From: a virus
Lineage: Duplodnaviria > Heunggongvirae > Uroviricota > Caudoviricetes
Strand: one strand, 5' to 3'
DNA length: 42,768 nucleotides
Virus record (IMG/VR): IMGVR_UViG_2531839663_000008
Span: 1 to 42,768 of that record
The translations under genes and the position numbers were made by a program. The notes under the pieces are model-generated. The model was not told the origin of the DNA. It was given only the letters and a program-made list of their open reading frames with translations, and did no database searches. Every line of letters begins with the position of its first letter. Within the stretch, counting starts at the first letter, position 1. Shown here one piece after another: positions 4,124-20,715 of this stretch.

Positions 4124-4737
4124 GCTGCACGCTCTGTGATTTTCTGAATTTCCGATTCCAGATCTGCAAGGAAGCTCTTAACCTCAGATTCGATTTCGCG
4201 CGCCAGCTCTTCATCGAAATGAATCCGCTTCTTGAAATAGGCGAGGTCAGGCGGCAGGCGATCATCGAAACTAACGAAATCACACCATTTCCGCCCGGTG
4301 CACATCATCTGTGCATGCATTTGCAGCATGTACTGGCGCTTTGGCTCACCAGTTTTCAGCGTTTCAAGATGGGTCCAGGTGTTGGGGCATTTGATTTCGA
4401 TAAGCCCGTCGTCGTTGACAAGTCCGTCCGGGCTGGCTGCGAATCCGGGTATGGTTGGGTGATCGATGAGCCCAACTTCAGTGATTGCCGCATTGAACTC
4501 ATTCAGCGCGTACATTTCGCGTGCCACTGGCTCAAGTTCAGTGCCGCGCATCATCGCGGCATTCGAAAACCCTTCCTCCAGCTTCCCGGTCAGCCGTTGG
4601 CAAATCAGCTCGGCCATGTAGTTCTGGCGGCTGGTGGAGTAGCCCGACTTAGTCCGGGCCATGACATCAGCCAGGCGACTGGCTGTGACCTTGCCGCAGC
4701 GCGCAGCAAACCATTCAGGGGTGCGTTGCTCTATCAT
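4120..4737 (-). CDS. YqaJ-like viral recombination exonuclease
   Basis: 205 aa; N-terminal RTPEWFAAR and PD-(D/E)xK-type GLIEIKCP motif; adjacent to and overlapping recT. Confidence 0.8.
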   Translation of the reverse strand: MIEQRTPEWFAARCGKVTASRLADVMARTKSGYSTSRQNYMAELICQRLTGKLEEGFSNAAMMRGTELEPVAREMYALNEFNAAITEVGLIDHPTIPGFAASPDGLVNDDGLIEIKCPNTWTHLETLKTGEPKRQYMLQMHAQMMCTGRKWCDFVSFDDRLPPDLAYFKKRIHFDEELAREIESEVKSFLADLESEIQKITERAA

Positions 4738-5495
4738 TCAGCCTCCGTCTCTGCGACATTGACAGGTTCGGCGTTGTCGACAGCAAGACTCATGTCATAC
4801 ATGCGTCGTTTCTCAACTGCGCCGATCACCTGTTTCTCTTCGGCGCTCAGCGCCACCCAGAACTCCTGATACTTAACGGTTCCAAGGCGCGCGGCGGACT
4901 CACCTTTTGCGATCAGTTCCGGGCGGCGGCTATCTGATTCATGGCCCGCATGAACCTCTGCCGTTGTTCCTTCAATTACTCGCTCTGCCTCGTCCTGGTC
5001 GAAGATGCCAGCGAAACCAAAGGCCAGACGCGCGCACTGGATCAGCGTCTTGTGGCGAAGCATGCGGGTAGGGTGGGACTGCCATGGCTGAGTGTTGCGT
5101 TTGCACTCTCCCATGTACTCGGTGACGATGGTCGGGTGCTTACGGTCTTTGCGGTAAATCTTGCAGGTACACGCGCCTTCCTCCTTGTCGTAAGAGAACT
5201 CCATGCCGTCAAACTGAGGATGCTCGTTGATAATGCGAGCCCATCCATCAACGCCGACGACCGGGACAATCCCGCCTTTATCTGGGAATGCGTAAATCTC
5301 TTTGGTCCATGGGTTCAGGCCGTACTGGTTGGCGACGATCAACAGGGCTGTAAACTGCTCGTCCGTGACGTTGCCACTTTTGAACGCTGTATTCTTCAGC
5401 GTATTCATCAGGTCTGTACCGGCATCCATGCCGAGGCGTGCGGCCAGTTTCCCGGCCATGGTGGAAAGTGCAGTACTCATTGTTAAATCCCTCAA
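4734..5495 (-). CDS. recT: RecT-family single-strand annealing protein
   Basis: 253 aa; RecT-like sequence, paired with the YqaJ exonuclease as in Rac/lambdoid recombination modules. Confidence 0.8.
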   Translation of the reverse strand: MRDLTMSTALSTMAGKLAARLGMDAGTDLMNTLKNTAFKSGNVTDEQFTALLIVANQYGLNPWTKEIYAFPDKGGIVPVVGVDGWARIINEHPQFDGMEFSYDKEEGACTCKIYRKDRKHPTIVTEYMGECKRNTQPWQSHPTRMLRHKTLIQCARLAFGFAGIFDQDEAERVIEGTTAEVHAGHESDSRRPELIAKGESAARLGTVKYQEFWVALSAEEKQVIGAVEKRRMYDMSLAVDNAEPVNVAETEAE

Positions 5496-5498
5496 AAA

Positions 5499-5783
5499 TT
5501 AAAACGGGCAGCCGGTACGGTGTTCCCAGTCGTATTCCGCCTGGGCGTAAGCAACTACCGAAATGAAATCGTTGTAGGCCTCGCCAGCTTTATCGCTGCG
5601 AAGCCCTTCGTATGGGCTGGAGTCTATCGGGATCGTGAAGTGGAAGAGGCCGGACGGCTCTTTAGGCATCATGTCGATGATTTTCTGCGCCCGGTCGTCG
5701 ATCCACTTCTCTTTCTCGTCGGTGATCTGCTGCTCAGCCCAGCGCCGATCTTCGATGCGGTCGTAAGTGAGGTATGCGTTCAT
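5499..5783 (-). CDS. Hypothetical phage protein
   Basis: 94-aa ORF co-directional in the early-left operon. Confidence 0.45.
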   Translation of the reverse strand: MNAYLTYDRIEDRRWAEQQITDEKEKWIDDRAQKIIDMMPKEPSGLFHFTIPIDSSPYEGLRSDKAGEAYNDFISVVAYAQAEYDWEHRTGCPF

Positions 5784-5790
5784 GGTTGCC

Positions 5791-6762
5791 TCAGTAATGA
5801 ATTTTCGCGCAGGGGATCAGGTCATCTTTCAGAGCGGTAAGCACTTCGATAGCCTGCTCGCGGGTTAAGCTGGTTTGGCTGGTGAGCGCGTTAACGATGT
5901 TGGTGCCGACCGTCTTGCGGTGCTTAACGTCAGCTTCACGCTTTGCCTGCTCATCGGCGAGGCGCTTCTCTTCGGCCAGGCGGGCATCTTCGGCCTGTTT
6001 GGCCTTCAGGCGCTCGGCTTCAACCGCCGCGGCTTTTTCGCGTTCCGCCCGGGCTTCCGCTTCCTGCTTCTCGCGAGCTGCACGCTGTTCCGCTTCGACG
6101 CGCTGGCGCTCCGCCAGTTCAGCGCGGGCTTTCTCTTCGGCTTCACGGCGCGCTGCGGCTTCAATCTCCGCTTTGTGCTTCGCTTCGGCATCGCGGCGGG
6201 CTTGTTCTGCCGCTTCCTGTTTCAGCCGCTCATCACGTTCACGCTGAGCCTGTTCCGCCAGACGGCGCTGCTCTTCGCGGTCACGGTCAAAATCCTTGTT
6301 CATCAGTAGAGCCATTTCGTGGTCCGCTTCGAACTTGGCAGCCAGCTCCTGATCGAACCTGATGTTCATCTCCAGCGCTTCGGCGTGCATCGCGTTCATG
6401 GCTTCTTCAGCCTTAATGCGTTCCTGCTCGGCTTCCCATTCGGTGAGTGGGCGGCGGGTCGCATCGCGCAGCTCGTCGCAGGCATCAACGAATCGCTTAA
6501 TTTCGGCCTCAGCCGGACGCACAGCCTCTTTCAGGCGCTTCAGGTACTCACGGCCCGGCTTTTCGATTGCCGTCTTGCTGCGGGACACCTGCGCTGCCAG
6601 AGAGGCAACACGGTCACGGCCTTTCTTCGTGGACAGGTCCGACACTTCGTTTACAGCCTGGCGGATTTGCTCAAGGTACGCGTCAAGGCCGCCCGCTACG
6701 TAAAGCACTGGGGCCTGTTCCGGCTTGATTTCGATGACAGTTAAGTCCGTTACTTCGCTCAT
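5791..6762 (-). CDS. Coiled-coil protein with low-complexity A/E/R/K repeat region
   Basis: Start placed at internal ATG preceded by AGGAGA RBS; long run of EAxRxAEEK-type repeats gives shadow ORFs in other frames. Confidence 0.55.
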   Translation of the reverse strand: MSEVTDLTVIEIKPEQAPVLYVAGGLDAYLEQIRQAVNEVSDLSTKKGRDRVASLAAQVSRSKTAIEKPGREYLKRLKEAVRPAEAEIKRFVDACDELRDATRRPLTEWEAEQERIKAEEAMNAMHAEALEMNIRFDQELAAKFEADHEMALLMNKDFDRDREEQRRLAEQAQRERDERLKQEAAEQARRDAEAKHKAEIEAAARREAEEKARAELAERQRVEAEQRAAREKQEAEARAEREKAAAVEAERLKAKQAEDARLAEEKRLADEQAKREADVKHRKTVGTNIVNALTSQTSLTREQAIEVLTALKDDLIPCAKIHY

Positions 6763-13587: not shown

Positions 13588-13932
13588 TTGTTTGAGAGTG
13601 ACGCCATGAAGCCCAAGAAGCTAAATGCTGAGCAGCAATACAAATTAGACCTTGAATTGGTCAAGAAGAAGCCTGCGAACCGGACCGAGGCAAAAGCCCA
13701 TTTGGCCTCACAGTTACGGATCAGCAAGTACAAGACGCAGACCTCTTCCAAAATCCGCGTAGGCAGTTTTAAGGGGCGGAAGAAGGTACATTTCAGTAAG
13801 GCGGAACGAGCAGCCAGGGCAGCACTAAATAAAGCAAATGCCATTAGATTTTCCGAAGGGGAGGTCGAGTCCGTCGATACGGATAGAATCTCAGAAAGTA
13901 ACAAACGCTGGCGCGGGAGAACTGCTGACTAA
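13588..13932 (+). CDS. Hypothetical basic (K/R-rich) protein
   Basis: 114-aa ORF after the terminator; start could instead be the ATG at 13606. Confidence 0.4.
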
Positions 13933-14186
13933 TGTCTGACTGGAATATTGCTGCAAAGCCGCAGGAAGAACGCGACAAGGTCAACGTTGACCTGGCAGCC
14001 TCCGGCGTAGCCTACAAAGAGCGCCTGAACATGCCGGTTATCGCTGAGGTGGTGATGCGTGAGCAGCCCGAGCATTTGCGTGATTACTTCCTTGAGCGTC
14101 TGAAGTTTTATCGCGAGAAGTCGATAGATTTACCAAGGGCATCCGATCCGCGGTACATGGAAATGGCTGATTCTAATAAAAAATAA
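13932..14186 (+). CDS. Hypothetical small protein
   Basis: 84 aa; start overlaps the upstream stop (translational coupling). Confidence 0.4.
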
Positions 14187-14237
14187 GCCCTAACGTGTTG
14201 ATGACCTTATCAGACCTAAACAGGAGGTTTTTCTAAA

Positions 14238-14777
14238 GTGATTAATATCATTGTTGATTCCAATGCTTGGAATTTTTTACATGTGAGTGGGATCTCCTTA
14301 AGCAACGAGCTTCTTAGCGATTATAACTTTCAGATAACATTAGAGGTGTCTCGTGAATTGCAGGAGTTAGTGGGCAAGGAAGGGAAGGAAGCTCTTTATG
14401 AATTCTTTGTAAGTGAGACTCAGTCGCTTGAAGAGCCCTTATGCTATTTTGGTTTTTACAATGAGTCAGTGCCTGCTGATGAACAGCGGTTTGGTGGATT
14501 TGGTGTTGGCGGGTTCGCATCTGTTCATCAAGATGATTATTTTCAGAAAACATTCCGCCAAATAAAATCATCAAAGCGTGGTATTTATTATGGCAATGAA
14601 GCTGACATGCTGATCGGGTCAAGAGGAATTGGGAACACTTTCATACTAACAGAAGATAATAATAAGTCAGGCCCGATGAAAGAGGCTGAGAACACTATCT
14701 TTGTTTCAAGAAAATTTCCTATGACTGTGGAGCAGTTTAAGGAATATCTTGATCTTGAAACCTCAAAAACTCTTTAG
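14238..14777 (+). CDS. PIN-like domain protein (putative nuclease), AT-rich accessory gene
   Basis: GTG start; N-terminal IIVDSNAWNFL and C-terminal EADMLIGSRGIGNTFILTEDNN match PIN-domain strand/acidic-residue patterns; gene is visibly AT-rich versus flanks. Confidence 0.45.
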   Translation: MINIIVDSNAWNFLHVSGISLSNELLSDYNFQITLEVSRELQELVGKEGKEALYEFFVSETQSLEEPLCYFGFYNESVPADEQRFGGFGVGGFASVHQDDYFQKTFRQIKSSKRGIYYGNEADMLIGSRGIGNTFILTEDNNKSGPMKEAENTIFVSRKFPMTVEQFKEYLDLETSKTL

Positions 14778-16997: not shown

Positions 16998-17687
16998 ATG
17001 AACAGTCAGCAACTGGAATACGTACGTCAGCAGCTCATTGTGGCGACCGCAGACCTCAGCGGGGCGACGAAAGGGCAGCTGGTAGCTTTCGCCGAGAACG
17101 CGCAATTCACCGCGACGGCGCGGAGTCGGGGCCGGAAAAAGGTATTCGACAAGGATAAGCAGCGCATGGTCAATCCTGACGGCCAGCCGATGAGCGGCAA
17201 CCAGTCCCGCGCTAAGGGCTCGTCTATCGCGCTGGTGGGCCCGGTAGAGTACGGGACCGCATCGTGGCGCCGCGCTGTTCTGTCGCTTGAAGACCATCAG
17301 AAAGCGTGGCTGCTATGGAACTATAGCGAGAACGTGCGCTGGTGCTATCAGGTGGAAATCACTCAATGGGCGTGGGCAGAGTTCCGGGAGCAGCTCGGCG
17401 CGAAGAAGGTGGCCGGCAAAACGATGGAGCGCCTGAAGAAGCTTGTCTGGCTCGCGGCTCAGGACGTGAAAGCAGAGCTGGCAGGGCGTGAGACGTACGA
17501 ATATCAGGCGCTGGCGTCGCTGGTTGGCGTAACGCCAAAAAACTGGTCAGAGACCTTTACTGACCGCTGGGTTGAGATGCGCAGCATCTTCCTGCGACTG
17601 GATAGCGGGGCTTTATTGCAGGTTACGCGATCACGTTCACAACAAAAGGCGACAAATTTAGACTCAAGTCTTGCAAAACTGGATTGA
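16998..17687 (+). CDS. Late-gene antiterminator, Q-like (by position; family unverified)
   Basis: 229-aa ORF directly upstream of a strong sigma70-like promoter plus terminators and the lysis cassette. Confidence 0.5.
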   Translation: MNSQQLEYVRQQLIVATADLSGATKGQLVAFAENAQFTATARSRGRKKVFDKDKQRMVNPDGQPMSGNQSRAKGSSIALVGPVEYGTASWRRAVLSLEDHQKAWLLWNYSENVRWCYQVEITQWAWAEFREQLGAKKVAGKTMERLKKLVWLAAQDVKAELAGRETYEYQALASLVGVTPKNWSETFTDRWVEMRSIFLRLDSGALLQVTRSRSQQKATNLDSSLAKLD

Positions 17688-17699: not shown

Positions 17700-17752
17700 T
17701 CATGTAAATCTGATATCGTCGCCATAGCTTCGTAGGTCGACAAAGAATTAAG

Positions 17753-17784
17753 AGCCTCGCCATCGTGCGGGGCTTTTTTATTTG
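17753..17784 (+). terminator. Intrinsic terminator (tR'-like, first)
   Basis: GCCUCGC / GCGGGGC stem with one G-U pair, followed by TTTTTTATTTG. Confidence 0.6.
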
Positions 17785-17956: not shown

Positions 17957-18274
17957 ATGGCAAAGCGTATGAATGACGACCATAAAATTGTAGGCCTGTC
18001 CTGGTTAGTCCTGCTCGGCATTGCATGCTGGGGCGGTTTAGTTCGCTACCTGATCGACGTAAAGCAGAATAAAGCGACATGGAGCTGGATAAACGCGCTG
18101 GCACAGATCGCTGTCTCCGGCTTTACCGGTTTGATTGGCGGGTTGATAAGCGTGGAGAGTGGGTTGAGTTTTCACATGATCCTTGTCACGTCCGGCATTA
18201 GCGGGGCGATGGGTTCAGTGGCTCTGACCTATTTCTGGGAACGCTTGACGGGGATGAAGAATGCAAACCAGTGA
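17957..18274 (+). CDS. Holin
   Basis: 105 aa starting MAKRMNDDHK; hydrophobic TM segments; overlaps the lysozyme start; first gene of the lysis cassette. Confidence 0.65.
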   Translation: MAKRMNDDHKIVGLSWLVLLGIACWGGLVRYLIDVKQNKATWSWINALAQIAVSGFTGLIGGLISVESGLSFHMILVTSGISGAMGSVALTYFWERLTGMKNANQ

Positions 18275-18701
18275 TAAAGGCATTGCCCTGATCAAAGAGT
18301 TCGAAGGTTGCAAGCTCACTGCCTATCAGGACAGCGTCGGCGTTTGGACGATCGGTTATGGCTGGACTCAGCCCGTCGACGGGAAACCAATCCGTGCCGG
18401 GATGACAATTAAGCAGGAAACGGCAGAACGCCTGCTGAAGACAGGAATGGTCAGTTACGAAAGTGACGTGTCACGACTGGTTAAAGTTGGCCTGACTCAG
18501 GGGCAATTCGATGCCCTGGTGTCGTTCACGTATAACCTCGGTGCGCGGTCATTGTCGACATCGACTCTCCTGCGAAAACTCAACGCCGGAGATTACGCTG
18601 GTGCAGCCGATGAGTTCCTGCGCTGGAATAAAGCTGGTGGGAAGGTGCTGAATGGGCTGACACGTCGGCGGGAGGCAGAGCGAGCTCTGTTCCTGTCATG
18701 A
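18261..18701 (+). CDS. Phage lysozyme (endolysin, T4-lysozyme-like fold)
   Basis: 146 aa; [10 protein letters not shown] ... TIGYGWT ... [15 protein letters not shown] pattern of phage lysozymes. Confidence 0.85.
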
Positions 18702-19168
18702 TTAGCGCACTGGTTAAGCGTTACTGGCTGCAGTTGCTGGTGCTGGCGTTAATCGGCGCACTGGCTTTCTTCGTGAACCACTACCGCGACAACGCCATCA
18801 CTTACAGAGACCAGCGCGATAAGGCCACTGAGAAACTCCTCCTGGCGACCGCCACCATTAAAGACATGCAGACCCGCCAGCGTGATGTCGCTGCACTGGA
18901 TGCCAAATACACCGGAGAACTGGCTGATGCCAAAGCCACTATCGATCAGCTTGAGCGTGATGTTGCTGCTGGCAAACGTCGGTTGCAGCTCAACGCAACC
19001 TGTCCCGCGAACGGAACGGCCAGCGCCACCGGCCTGGATGATGCAACCGGCCCCCGACTTACTGACGCCGCTGAACGGGATTATTTCACCCTCAGAGAGC
19101 GAATTGAAACCATCACCAGCCAACTGACAGGCCTGCAAGCGTATGTGCGTGAGCAGTGCATTAGATGA
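18698..19168 (+). CDS. Rz: Rz-like inner-membrane spanin
   Basis: 156 aa; N-terminal TM helix then coiled-coil; directly after the endolysin gene with 4-nt overlap. Confidence 0.75.
18927..19127 (+). CDS. Rz1: Rz1-like outer-membrane lipoprotein spanin, embedded in the +1 frame of Rz
   Basis: Signal/lipobox [10 protein letters not shown] followed by Pro-rich [26 protein letters not shown]; start codon uncertain (18927 or 18960). Confidence 0.65.
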
Positions 19169-19278
19169 TTGCTAAGCTTCAAATAACAACAATTTTCATG
19201 TGTACAATCAGGCGCTGATAGTTTAATTTTTAGTGATATTAAAACCATATCAATCAATAATTTAACTTAGGTGAATGA

Positions 19279-19629
19279 ATGTCCATGAAGCGTATTACCG
19301 TTTTGCTTTCTGCGCTCCTGCTTGCAGGATGCACTAACTATTCTGCACAGCAACCTTATCGCTCTCCCAATGGAGAGCAGATGCTCATTAGTGCCAATAT
19401 GCCAAACGGAATACTGAAGTTGTGGGTTAATGATGTCCTGGTTGTTGATGATTCATTCCTTAACCAGGATAAAAGTCTTTCGGCCGCTTTCGCCCAAAGC
19501 TACACGAACGTATACAACGGCGACTATAAGGGTAAAAAAGTTATGGCCCGCTGTAAGTTTTCCCGTGACGCAAAGGAATGTGATGTCTTCGTTGACGGCG
19601 AGTATGCAGCCAACCTCTTCCTGAGATAA
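19279..19629 (+). CDS. Lipoprotein of unknown function (moron)
   Basis: Signal peptide with lipobox LLAGC; preceded by a strongly AT-rich intergenic region; occupies the slot where lambda carries bor. Confidence 0.55.
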   Translation: MSMKRITVLLSALLLAGCTNYSAQQPYRSPNGEQMLISANMPNGILKLWVNDVLVVDDSFLNQDKSLSAAFAQSYTNVYNGDYKGKKVMARCKFSRDAKECDVFVDGEYAANLFLR

Positions 19630-19711
19630 ATAGCCAGGCATTACAGCAGGCATTCACTGAGTGCCTGTGATAATGCTAAAGTGATAACTCACACTAATGG
19701 TGGGGGTTTTC

Positions 19712-20008
19712 ATGAAGCACTTAATTCACTCTTTCATTTTGAAAACGGACGATGGGTCTACCATCAAGTACGAGATTTACTGTAAAAACCATGAGCTTGG
19801 TTACCACAAAAAAGTACCTGAAGGCTCCTGTCAGATCATTTCATCAAAGCTTGACCCTGATGATCGAGATTTTAAAGTGACTGACATCAACCTAAACATT
19901 GATGCCCTGTACAAAGCCAATCAGCCAGCCCCTAATACTTGGTACTCAGATGGACAGGATCGTGTAAGCCTGGATATGGTTATCAGCTATCTCGCTAAGT
20001 TGAAGTAA
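19712..20008 (+). CDS. Hypothetical small protein (moron)
   Basis: Start at MKHLIH with GGTGGGGG RBS; AT-rich; followed by terminator. Confidence 0.4.
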   Translation: MKHLIHSFILKTDDGSTIKYEIYCKNHELGYHKKVPEGSCQIISSKLDPDDRDFKVTDINLNIDALYKANQPAPNTWYSDGQDRVSLDMVISYLAKLK

Positions 20009-20029
20009 CTAATGTTCATCAGTGTCTTA

Positions 20030-20056
20030 AGCCTCGCTAATGCGGGGCTTTTTTAA
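20030..20056 (+). terminator. Intrinsic terminator; near-copy of the hairpin at 17753
   Basis: AGCCTCGC-TAAT-GCGGGGC hairpin followed by TTTTTTAA. Confidence 0.55.
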
Positions 20057-20082
20057 TGGAGCCAAACCTCAGGAAGATAACC

Positions 20083-20715
20083 ATGGCGAATGAAGATGAT
20101 CTCCGCCCGCTGCCATTATCCGCATTCGTCGGAGAGTTCGCTCCGTACATTCGGTTAGCTCCTGCTGATGGTGTATGGCAATGGGTGCAGGAGCAAATCA
20201 TCGCCGATTCCGGTCATCTGCATAACCCTGACCACGCACACCTCGCTGATGCTGATATAGCGTTCTTGTGGGCGGCAACCGCATTCACCAAAAAAGGGCG
20301 AGCCGTTCTCGGTCAGGCCGAAGAGGTAATGATGCGTGCTGGTGGATGGCAAAAAGCCCGGATGGAACAGCAGATGCATGAGTGGTTCGGACATAAACCG
20401 GACTTCATTATCACGCTGGCCGGTGACTTCTGCCTGCAATGCTCTGACCTGGAATTCTGCGCGCTGGTAGAGCATGAGCTTTACCACATAGCGCAGGAGA
20501 CCGATGAATTCGGCTCCCCGAAGTTCTACCGCGATTCCGGATTGCCAAAGCTATACCTACGCGGCCACGACGTTGAAGAGTTCGTTGGCGTGGTTCGGCG
20601 ATACGGAGCGAGTGCCGACGTGCAAGAGCTGGTGGACGCAGCAAATCAACCTGCAGAGGTGGCAAAACTTAACATCGCCAGAGCGTGCGGGACGTGCATG
20701 CTGAAACTGGCTTAA
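20083..20715 (+). CDS. HExxH-motif protein (putative zinc metallopeptidase-like), unknown function
   Basis: Start at MANEDDL with AGGAAG RBS; VEHELYHIAQ motif plus several Cys; lies between lysis genes and terminase. Confidence 0.45.
   Translation: MANEDDLRPLPLSAFVGEFAPYIRLAPADGVWQWVQEQIIADSGHLHNPDHAHLADADIAFLWAATAFTKKGRAVLGQAEEVMMRAGGWQKARMEQQMHEWFGHKPDFIITLAGDFCLQCSDLEFCALVEHELYHIAQETDEFGSPKFYRDSGLPKLYLRGHDVEEFVGVVRRYGASADVQELVDAANQPAEVAKLNIARACGTCMLKLA

Follow-up and report, generated by a model that had tools for sequence, protein, structure and literature searches.

Phage morons are defined by a differing GC content together with a promoter and a terminator of their own (PMC3594210). 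Antisense placement has likewise been linked to accessory loci that are transcribed independently, with transcriptomic support from Salmonella prophages (PMC7067206). In T4-like phages, variable open reading frames (ORFs) are flanked by PeSLs, composite terminator/promoter stem-loop motifs that mediate the shuffling of these genes (PMC2839356, PMC4122927). Here, we describe an AT-rich island at positions 19169–20055 of a 42,768-nucleotide stretch of lambdoid prophage DNA (IMG/VR virus record IMGVR_UViG_2531839663_000008; the whole stretch is hereafter called the window). The island carries an orphan lipoprotein gene (ORF1), a second small gene (ORF2) and, at the junction between them, a hairpin.

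The island belongs to a familiar type of element, the moron in the slot behind the lysis genes, and its members are new and uncharacterized. Beyond the earlier description, the analysis separates it into two cassettes and shows that the hairpin where they meet is structured, occurs widely and carries no annotation in the deposited records inspected. We favor, with a probability of roughly 0.6, the reading that the island is a horizontally acquired moron in which two independent cassettes are joined at the conserved hairpin, and which works by the mechanism proposed below.

Two cassettes in one post-lysis island

At 41.8% GC against a window mean of 51.7%, the island is among the lowest 0.5% of 887-bp windows, and GC at third codon positions is 0.50 and 0.49 in its two ORFs versus 0.59–0.69 in neighboring genes. 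It opens with the leader of cassette 1 (19169–19284, 27–28% GC), in which the gap at 19169–19278 (27.3% GC) exceeds every other 110-bp stretch of the 42.8 kb in AT content (0.06% of windows have GC as low). ORF1 (19285–19629), the hairpin (19637–19677), the short leader of cassette 2 (19678–19711), ORF2 (19712–20008) and an intrinsic terminator (20029–20056) follow in that order, all on the plus strand. Pfam and PHROG scans place the island in the late region, in the gene order Q, holin, lysozyme, Rz/Rz1, island, PF18894, DUF2280 and large terminase (TerL). The island is extra DNA in a conserved gene order, deviant in GC and with a terminator of its own behind ORF2. The slot between lysis and terminase genes carries differing genes in KFu022, phi80, mEp390, ZF40 and Klebsiella phages, and the island itself is found again behind different Q and lysis modules.

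Much of this anatomy had been described in an earlier note on the same DNA, and we found the AT-rich gap, a lipoprotein gene with the lipobox LLAGC, a second small ORF and the slot between spanin and packaging genes where that note had put them. It had also held that an intrinsic terminator closes the island; the terminator is real, but it ends the second of two separable cassettes and does not delimit a single unit.

We consider the two-cassette architecture highly probable. E. coli KFu022 is 99.5% identical over the leader, ORF1 and a further 50 nucleotides and then has entirely different genes, and the similarity stops at the hairpin. ORF2 homologs occur without ORF1 in Klebsiella and Enterobacter prophages, always between lysis and terminase genes and on the late strand. 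Because KFu022 has cassette 1 alone up to the hairpin and ORF2 homologs occur without ORF1, the cassettes are separable. The pair of ORF1 and ORF2 recurs in one phage lineage only (Citrobacter youngae and related contigs), upstream of PF18894, DUF2280 and TerL.

Cassette 1 has moved through four kinds of context. Its lipoprotein gene lies behind the lysis genes, in the direction of late transcription, in Enterobacter sp. 638 and the majority of viral contigs; in the same slot, antisense to the late operon, in Yersinia enterocolitica prophages; downstream of Q, behind another, unrelated lipoprotein and with a terminator following, in loci L164 and L166; and next to an H-NS-like gene in DNA resembling an integrative and conjugative element (ICE) or a plasmid in four Pectobacterium or Symbiopectobacterium genomes, where a shufflon, PilS, TraD, ParB/RepB and a recombinase mark the surroundings. 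At L007, L008, L149, L150 and L151 (~4520–5360 or 5500–6357), the ORF1 homolog is immediately 3' of, and co-directional with, a gene of the H-NS family (PF00816).

Because ORF1 is found antisense, behind Q and in non-phage DNA, we regard it as mobile cargo and not as a lysis accessory. One could instead take the lipoprotein for a second o-spanin, a modulator of spanin or holin, or a phage lysozyme inhibitor, given that ORF1 directly follows Rz/Rz1 and has weak PHROG matches to Rz-like spanins and a weak NCBIfam match to the C-type lysozyme inhibitor MliC. However, ORF1 also occurs away from lysis genes and the phage has an Rz1 of its own, and we consider a lysis role very improbable. Homology to a lysis accessory protein, which the earlier note had named among the grounds for abandoning its moron interpretation, is ruled out, as is linkage to one, by the post-Q and non-lysis contexts of ORF1.

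The leader of cassette 2 contains the Shine-Dalgarno (SD) sequence GGTGGGGG; in an alignment and in the sequence at L017, ORF2 homologs are preceded by the same leader and by a copy of the hairpin. ORF2 encodes a predicted cytoplasmic orphan of 98 residues with no signal peptide, and an alternative ATG lies upstream at 19697. Its homologs form 16 protein clusters (Citrobacter, Enterobacter and Klebsiella) that share the invariant motif NQPxPNTWYSDGQDRV. A tblastn search with ORF2 found no match among 50,697 deposited phage genomes. The predicted structure is a four-stranded beta-meander plus two helices, for which the only fold matches are single propeller blades.

The terminator that forms the right boundary of the island (AAGCCTCGC-TAAT-GCGGGGCTT followed by TTTT, called by the terminator scan) has a 9-bp stem with six GC pairs, a 4-nucleotide loop and a T-run, and occupies the same position after every ORF2 homolog examined. 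At L019 and L021 its stem carries a one-sided change from G·U to A·U that keeps the pairing, and another hairpin, GC-rich and with a T-run, stands in for it at the distant L023. Separately, the gene just upstream of the ORF2 homolog in an Enterobacter prophage (L020, 4581–4838) has a faint Pfam match to the Acb2/Tad1 hairpin family; this weak match to anti-CBASS/anti-Thoeris sponges hints that the slot may also hold anti-defense genes.

A covarying stem-loop at the cassette junction

The two cassettes meet at a 41-nucleotide intercistronic hairpin (19637–19677, plus strand), which had been overlooked in the earlier note. Its lower stem has 7 bp (GGCATTA/TAATGCT) and is followed by an invariant 2x2 internal loop (CA/GA), an upper stem of 10 bp and the terminal loop ACT; the minimum free energy is −35.8 kcal/mol (z = −5.3 versus shuffles). 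Using a covariance model built from hairpin copies to find diverged ones, we observed that the base CATTA-CA-G…C-GA-TAATG is constant and that the upper stem and loop vary with compensation. Across 38 distinct upper stems, 8.7 of 9 positions are paired, compared to 6.6 ± 0.2 when the 3' halves are permuted. Among 17 variants of equal length, 97.1% of cells are paired versus 85.0 ± 1.6% after shuffling (a level reached in 0 of 500 shuffles) and 31–50% with the register slid, and 7 of 14 pairs have changed on both sides, that is, in a compensatory manner. The departures from Watson-Crick pairing are strongly biased, with 58 G·U versus 6 A·C, and the sense strand is the more stable in 32 of 38 variants. 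This excess of G·U and the stabler sense fold are the expected signature of selection on structure in the sense transcript, and we infer such selection here. A search of Rfam 15 across 19100–20100 was empty both at the gathering threshold and at the relaxed cut-off of E ≤ 5.

The hairpin is common well beyond the window. Its 38-nucleotide core is identical in phi80, mEp390, Pectobacterium ZF40, and Klebsiella and E. coli prophages, with flanks that are otherwise unrelated; at least 120 IMG/VR contigs contain an exact 29-mer of it, and the family is represented in 48 deposited phages, including phi80, cdtI, phiP27, Fels-1 and ST64B. In the deposited records inspected, phi80 and ST64B for example, it sits in unannotated intergenic DNA. 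A literature search for the 21-nucleotide hairpin core returned no match, searches on lambdoid boundary sequences and on DUF2560 returned nothing relevant, and the element goes unmentioned in a transcriptome paper on Salmonella lysogens.

Its position relative to genes is regular. Of 138 non-redundant contexts, 111 have a sense ORF that ends no more than 60 nucleotides upstream (the stop codon is 0–1 nucleotide away in 68 of these), and the next sense ORF starts a median of ~30 nucleotides downstream. The flanks fall into 77 upstream and 89 downstream clusters in 110 combinations, with one upstream cluster joined to ten downstream ones. The hairpin also forms arrays of 2–4 copies on one strand, typically 311–352 bp apart, with one small ORF per interval. 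Such arrays are present at L017 (4255–4971), L061 (8694–9409), L069 (2995–4030), L062 (45–2490), L075, L111 and L112, and the ORFs inside them often encode DUF2560 (81 residues) or a membrane-like protein of 70 residues; at these loci the post-lysis slot looks like a cassette array.

The ORF1 gene is trailed by a version of the hairpin in the window lineage and in relatives at 80–85% identity (L015, L155, L156 and L158–L161), and a classical terminator stands at the position of the hairpin in the more distant L162, L164 and L166. This substitution suggests that hairpin and terminator are equivalent as 3'-end elements.

These data also bear on whether the hairpin has any function as RNA. If the hairpin were a DNA linker common to many phages, or a site for protein binding or recombination, that phage recombination keeps homogenizing, this would account for a core identical in well over 100 phages between unrelated flanks, for similarity breakpoints that fall at the hairpin, and for a stem base conserved in sequence as a protein site would be; about 40 bp is also roughly the minimal homology for Red/RecET-type recombinases. 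Diverged copies, however, keep their pairing by compensatory changes, and the wobble bias together with the fixed orientation to flanking genes points to selection on the sense single strand. The terminator found in the place of the hairpin (L162, L164 and L166) likewise suggests equivalence at the level of RNA. We consider a hairpin devoid of RNA function unlikely, and put an RNA-level role at close to even odds.

A further possibility is that the hairpin combines a stem-loop with a promoter, as in PeSLs, its 3' arm TGTGATAAT (19666–19674) serving as an extended −10 element that drives ORF2 in the lysogen. All variants have GATAAT, a TG stands one base 5' of it in the canonical copy, and the median distance to the next start codon corresponds to a 5' untranslated region of normal length. 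By contrast, no −35 lies at a distance of 16–18 nucleotides and the scan called no promoter, the TG is lost in most diverged variants (CGATAAT), and the selection for sense-strand pairing would be left unexplained. This makes a composite promoter distinctly improbable.

We propose instead that the hairpin, placed at the 3' end of an accessory gene, would serve as a protecting or processing signal, either of the RNase III type or as a barrier to exonucleases, and that it would double as a crossover point for the exchange of cassettes; the latter role is proposed because the sequence is common to many phages. More tentatively, the hairpin may define an undescribed cassette system of temperate phages of Enterobacterales, in which the stem-loop is both RNA signal and recombination handle, enabling morons such as this lipoprotein gene to pass from one phage to an unrelated one. 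Accessory slots, chiefly the post-lysis one, could then be arrays of small genes, each ending in a sense-strand stem-loop (CATTA-CA...GA-TAATG). A host or phage factor might recognize this stem-loop, which by analogy could play in lambdoid phages the part that PeSLs play in T4 or attC sites in integrons.

Two individual copies stand apart. In Elizabethkingia phage EKP1 (OM284015.1, 35843–35884), the canonical hairpin is 100% identical; the recorded host of EKP1 belongs to Bacteroidota and all other copies lie within Enterobacterales and Pasteurellaceae, and the EKP1 copy could reflect host misassignment, contamination or recent transfer. In the Yersinia loci L011 and L013 (5361–5455), the antisense lipoprotein gene is followed by a GC-rich hairpin (AAGCCAC…GTGGCTT) and then by a copy of the hairpin family. 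The base motif of this copy reads gene-ward; its wobble pattern and the abutting stop codon of a late-strand gene fit the opposite, late strand, and the copy looks chimeric or bidirectional.

Proposed expression, predicted lipoprotein and genomic setting

In the cassette 1 leader, the conserved block ends AATCAATAATTTAACTTA, and the SD sequence AGGTGA lies at 19269–19274. About 95 nucleotides of leader are conserved in the closer phage copies, and the 35–40 nucleotides before the start codon (…AATCAAnAATTTAACTTA plus the SD sequence, with a −10-like AAnAAT) are kept in post-lysis copies on either strand and in ICE copies. Antisense or non-phage copies cannot depend on the late promoter pR', which makes a regulatory region belonging to the gene itself the best reading of the AT-rich leader. 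The moron interpretation that the earlier note had given to this slot is strengthened accordingly, as ORF1 moves with its conserved leader into antisense and ICE-like contexts beyond the reach of the late promoter. Promoter prediction in the AT-rich gap, a check that the note had named, gave a weak result. The sole promoter call in the leader is a 9/12 match, with a −35 GTGATA (19233–19238), a 17-nucleotide spacer and a −10 AATAAT (19256–19261), and this predicted −10 coincides with the conserved AAnAAT of homologous leaders.

Several observations weigh against the favored reading of an independently expressed moron. No −35 is conserved across homologous leaders, and the region holds 5 promoter-like matches versus 2.3 ± 1.2 expected, which is not clearly above chance. 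The post-Q copies L164 and L166 have the lipoprotein gene without the leader, and in most phages ORF1 is co-directional with the late operon, where late expression alone would suffice. The hairpin has no T-run, the sequence 3' of it varies and is not rich in T across 127 copies, and the terminator scan makes no call there; because the T-run is missing, the hairpin is not a canonical terminator, and a transcription stop at the end of cassette 1 is only putative. ORF2 belongs to no family in Pfam, PHROGs, NCBIfam or PADLOC and has no PDB sequence-profile match. Finally, we dropped the Yersinia copy as proof that the hairpin inverts together with the lipoprotein gene, since its base motif and wobble pattern disagree on orientation.

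Some of these points would also fit two late-operon passengers without promoters of their own, made after induction from Q-antiterminated pR' transcripts and acting in the lytic cycle; the lipoprotein might, for example, mask the receptor and spare progeny from loss on cell debris, as T5 Llp does. Co-directional placement in the window and most viral contigs, the weak promoter prediction with its unconserved −35, the leaderless copies at L164 and L166, and a hairpin that is not a terminator all favor such passengers. Yet the antisense copies in Yersinia and the non-phage copies in Pectobacterium keep the leader and must be transcribed on their own, the leader is the extreme of the window in AT content, and the strong ORF2 terminator would be purposeless inside an obligatorily read-through operon. 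We judge late passengers rather unlikely, and hold independent expression in the lysogen, as read from these sequence features, to be slightly favored.

The mechanism that we propose for the two-cassette moron is as follows. A sigma-70 promoter in the leader would transcribe the lipoprotein gene in the lysogen, where the ORF2 terminator would halt transcription begun within the island. After induction, Q-modified polymerase from pR' would pass the ORF2 terminator and continue into the packaging genes.

ORF1 encodes a prolipoprotein of 114 residues. An alternative start at 19279 would yield 116 residues, and 19285 is the likely start because homologs begin at the second ATG of the window sequence. 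The signal peptide MKRITVLLSALLLAG|C ends in the lipobox LLAG|C, with Thr at +2; the lipobox reads MKRITVLLSALL-LAGC and fits the pattern [LVI][ASTVI][GAS]C. Its cysteine is invariant in 19 close homologs and nearly invariant in 29 distant family members, which supports the lipobox call, and Pfam LPAM_1 scores 15.2 bits on ORF1, under its cut-off of 20. Also conserved across the family are two further cysteines, a QPYR motif that closely follows the lipobox and, at the C terminus, the motif CDVFxDGEYAANL.

The family is rare. ORF1 homologs form 22 clusters at 59–99% identity, from Citrobacter or Enterobacter-type prophages, Siccibacter, Pectobacterium, Dickeya, Xenorhabdus and Yersinia, and a profile search of 1.8 billion representatives added just 28 more clusters, all of them lipoproteins of ~110 residues and some from marine Gammaproteobacteria. 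The family is present in 3 of 185,579 species-representative genomes and in 15 IMG/VR contigs; no distant relatives appeared in the viral contigs searched, and tblastn with ORF1 found no match in the 50,697 deposited phage genomes or in 72,556 plasmids. ORF1 has no Pfam, PHROG, NCBIfam or PADLOC family beyond signal-peptide matches. Judged by its sequence, ORF1 is a new, uncharacterized lipoprotein of a rare family.

Several apparent relatives of ORF1 were considered and rejected. A match to Cor (phrog_1119, E = 0.018) covers residues 3–26 only, that is, the signal peptide. T4 Spackle (PDB 6x6o, E = 0.039) aligns signal peptide to signal peptide, and the ORF1 model is all-beta. For Rz1-type o-spanins (PF06085 and PF23793), the PF06085 match belongs to the ORF embedded in Rz and not to ORF1, and ORF1 homologs occur without lysis genes. 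ORF1 is not a member of the MliC family, to which the weak NCBIfam match extends no further than the signal peptide. Searches with the Bor profile PF06291 stayed empty, with cut-offs of E ≤ 0.1 for ORF1 of the window and E ≤ 0.01 for 29 members of its family. The lipoprotein had been called not recognizably Bor-like in the earlier note, and our searches agree, with no homology to Bor, Cor, Rz1 or lysozyme inhibitors.

AlphaFold2 models of the two island proteins are confident (predicted local distance difference test scores of 84 and 85). The ORF1 model predicts an all-beta mature domain of ~98 residues with eight strands, which has no structural match among Bor/Cor/Llp-type lipoproteins in the PDB or BFVD lists. 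We propose that the protein would be exported, lipidated at Cys16 and, given Thr at +2, Lol-sorted to the outer membrane, where its disulfide-bonded eight-stranded beta domain would alter the envelope. Receptor masking or surface protection would be the most probable effects, as for Cor, Llp and Bor, and by this analogy a role in exclusion or surface protection is possible, if tentative; the serum-resistance or exclusion role raised in the earlier note is likewise an analogy. As an orphan with no homolog in deposited phages and a presence in so few genomes, the lipoprotein is a candidate new lysogenic-conversion or exclusion factor, and one that is cheap to test.

The genes around the island are conventional. 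Q (16998–17687), a holin (17957–18274) and a lysozyme (18261–18701), each assigned by Pfam and PHROG, lead to the Rz i-spanin gene (18698–19168, plus strand; PF03245, E = 3e-45), which closes the lysis cassette and borders the island on the left. The Rz1 o-spanin is embedded in Rz in the +1 frame (~18927–19127; PF06085, E = 1e-16), and phrog_13 and phrog_3198 are the PHROG matches for Rz/Rz1. The first gene to the right (20083–20715, plus strand) resembles the PF18894 'phage metallopeptidase' (E = 3e-43), and DUF2280 occupies the small-terminase position before the large terminase. Although the mechanical ORF of the PF18894 gene starts at 20056, homologs in L145–L148 are 210 residues long, so the start is likely at 20083, and the T-run of the island terminator therefore falls outside the gene. 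The same gene is labeled 'transposase' by phrog_513 and in the ZF40 record (gp39), probably a propagated misannotation.

Two other features of the window lie outside the island. The sole other region as GC-poor as the island (13932–14777, plus strand) comprises a homolog of the HOT-like DNA polymerase III theta subunit (13932–14186; PF06440, E = 1e-34) and, directly 3' of it, an orphan ORF of 179 residues (14238–14777) with no Pfam or PADLOC family; this may be a second moron, in the early-right region. Directly 3' of the Q gene, positions 17703–17776 (plus strand) give a full-length Rfam match to the Hfq-binding small RNA isrJ (RF01393; 68.7 bits versus a gathering score of 37), with a strong terminator hairpin at its end. 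From its position, this match looks like the short pR' leader transcript of the late operon (6S-like, tR') and not a free-standing small RNA gene.

Comparison with known systems

The hairpin is present in well-studied phages such as phi80, Fels-1, ST64B, phiP27, cdtI and ZF40. If functional, it would offer a handle on how the morons of lambdoid phages are delimited, expressed and exchanged, and a practical marker for locating prophage cargo genes.

Like the lambdoid morons HK97 gene 15, lambda bor and lambda lom (Hendrix, PMC3594210), the island is inserted DNA of deviant GC with small genes and flanking signals of their own. It shares the post-Rz slot with lambda bor, and the Yersinia ORF1 homolog is antisense to the late operon as bor is. 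It differs in that the promoter is only predicted and cassette 1 ends in a hairpin that lacks a T-run, and further in being composed of two cassettes of independent origin, neither of whose proteins is related to a characterized moron product. At the protein level, ORF1 resembles Bor/Iss (PF06291), Cor and T5 Llp, which serve in serum resistance or block receptors, as a phage lipoprotein of ~100 residues, predicted to reach the outer membrane, with a non-Asp residue at +2, a conserved cysteine pair that would form a disulfide, and an accessory slot; unlike them, it shows no sequence similarity to these proteins beyond the signal peptide and no structural match.

Among RNA elements, the hairpin resembles two kinds of site, those cleaved by RNase III between the cistrons of T7 and the REP-type hairpins that stabilize 3' ends in E. 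coli operons: a stem of ~20 bp with an internal loop lies between cistrons of a long polycistronic transcript, on the sense strand and rich in G·U. In contrast to this shared architecture, the sequence of the hairpin is unrelated to theirs and absent from Rfam, and the likeness is one of layout. Integron attC sites likewise combine a conserved stem base, an unpaired central spacer and a variable terminal stem-loop, and they too form co-directional arrays and lie just after the stop codon of a cassette ORF. However, the attC R-box RYYYAAC/GTTRRRY is absent, the hairpin base being CATTAC...GATAATG, and no integron integrase was noted in the annotated loci inspected, among which no systematic search was made. 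The likeness to attC is architectural only.

The PeSLs of T4 are, by analogy, the closest published concept for the hairpin. The hairpin differs from them in belonging to temperate lambdoid and P2-like phages of Enterobacterales, in its unrelated sequence and candidate promoter, in its place within a late Q-dependent operon, and in a base and internal loop conserved in sequence below an upper stem that covaries. As with PeSLs, a short stem-loop motif lies between small accessory ORFs in a hyperplastic region where unrelated flanking genes exchange, and arrays of 2–4 copies bracket single small genes.

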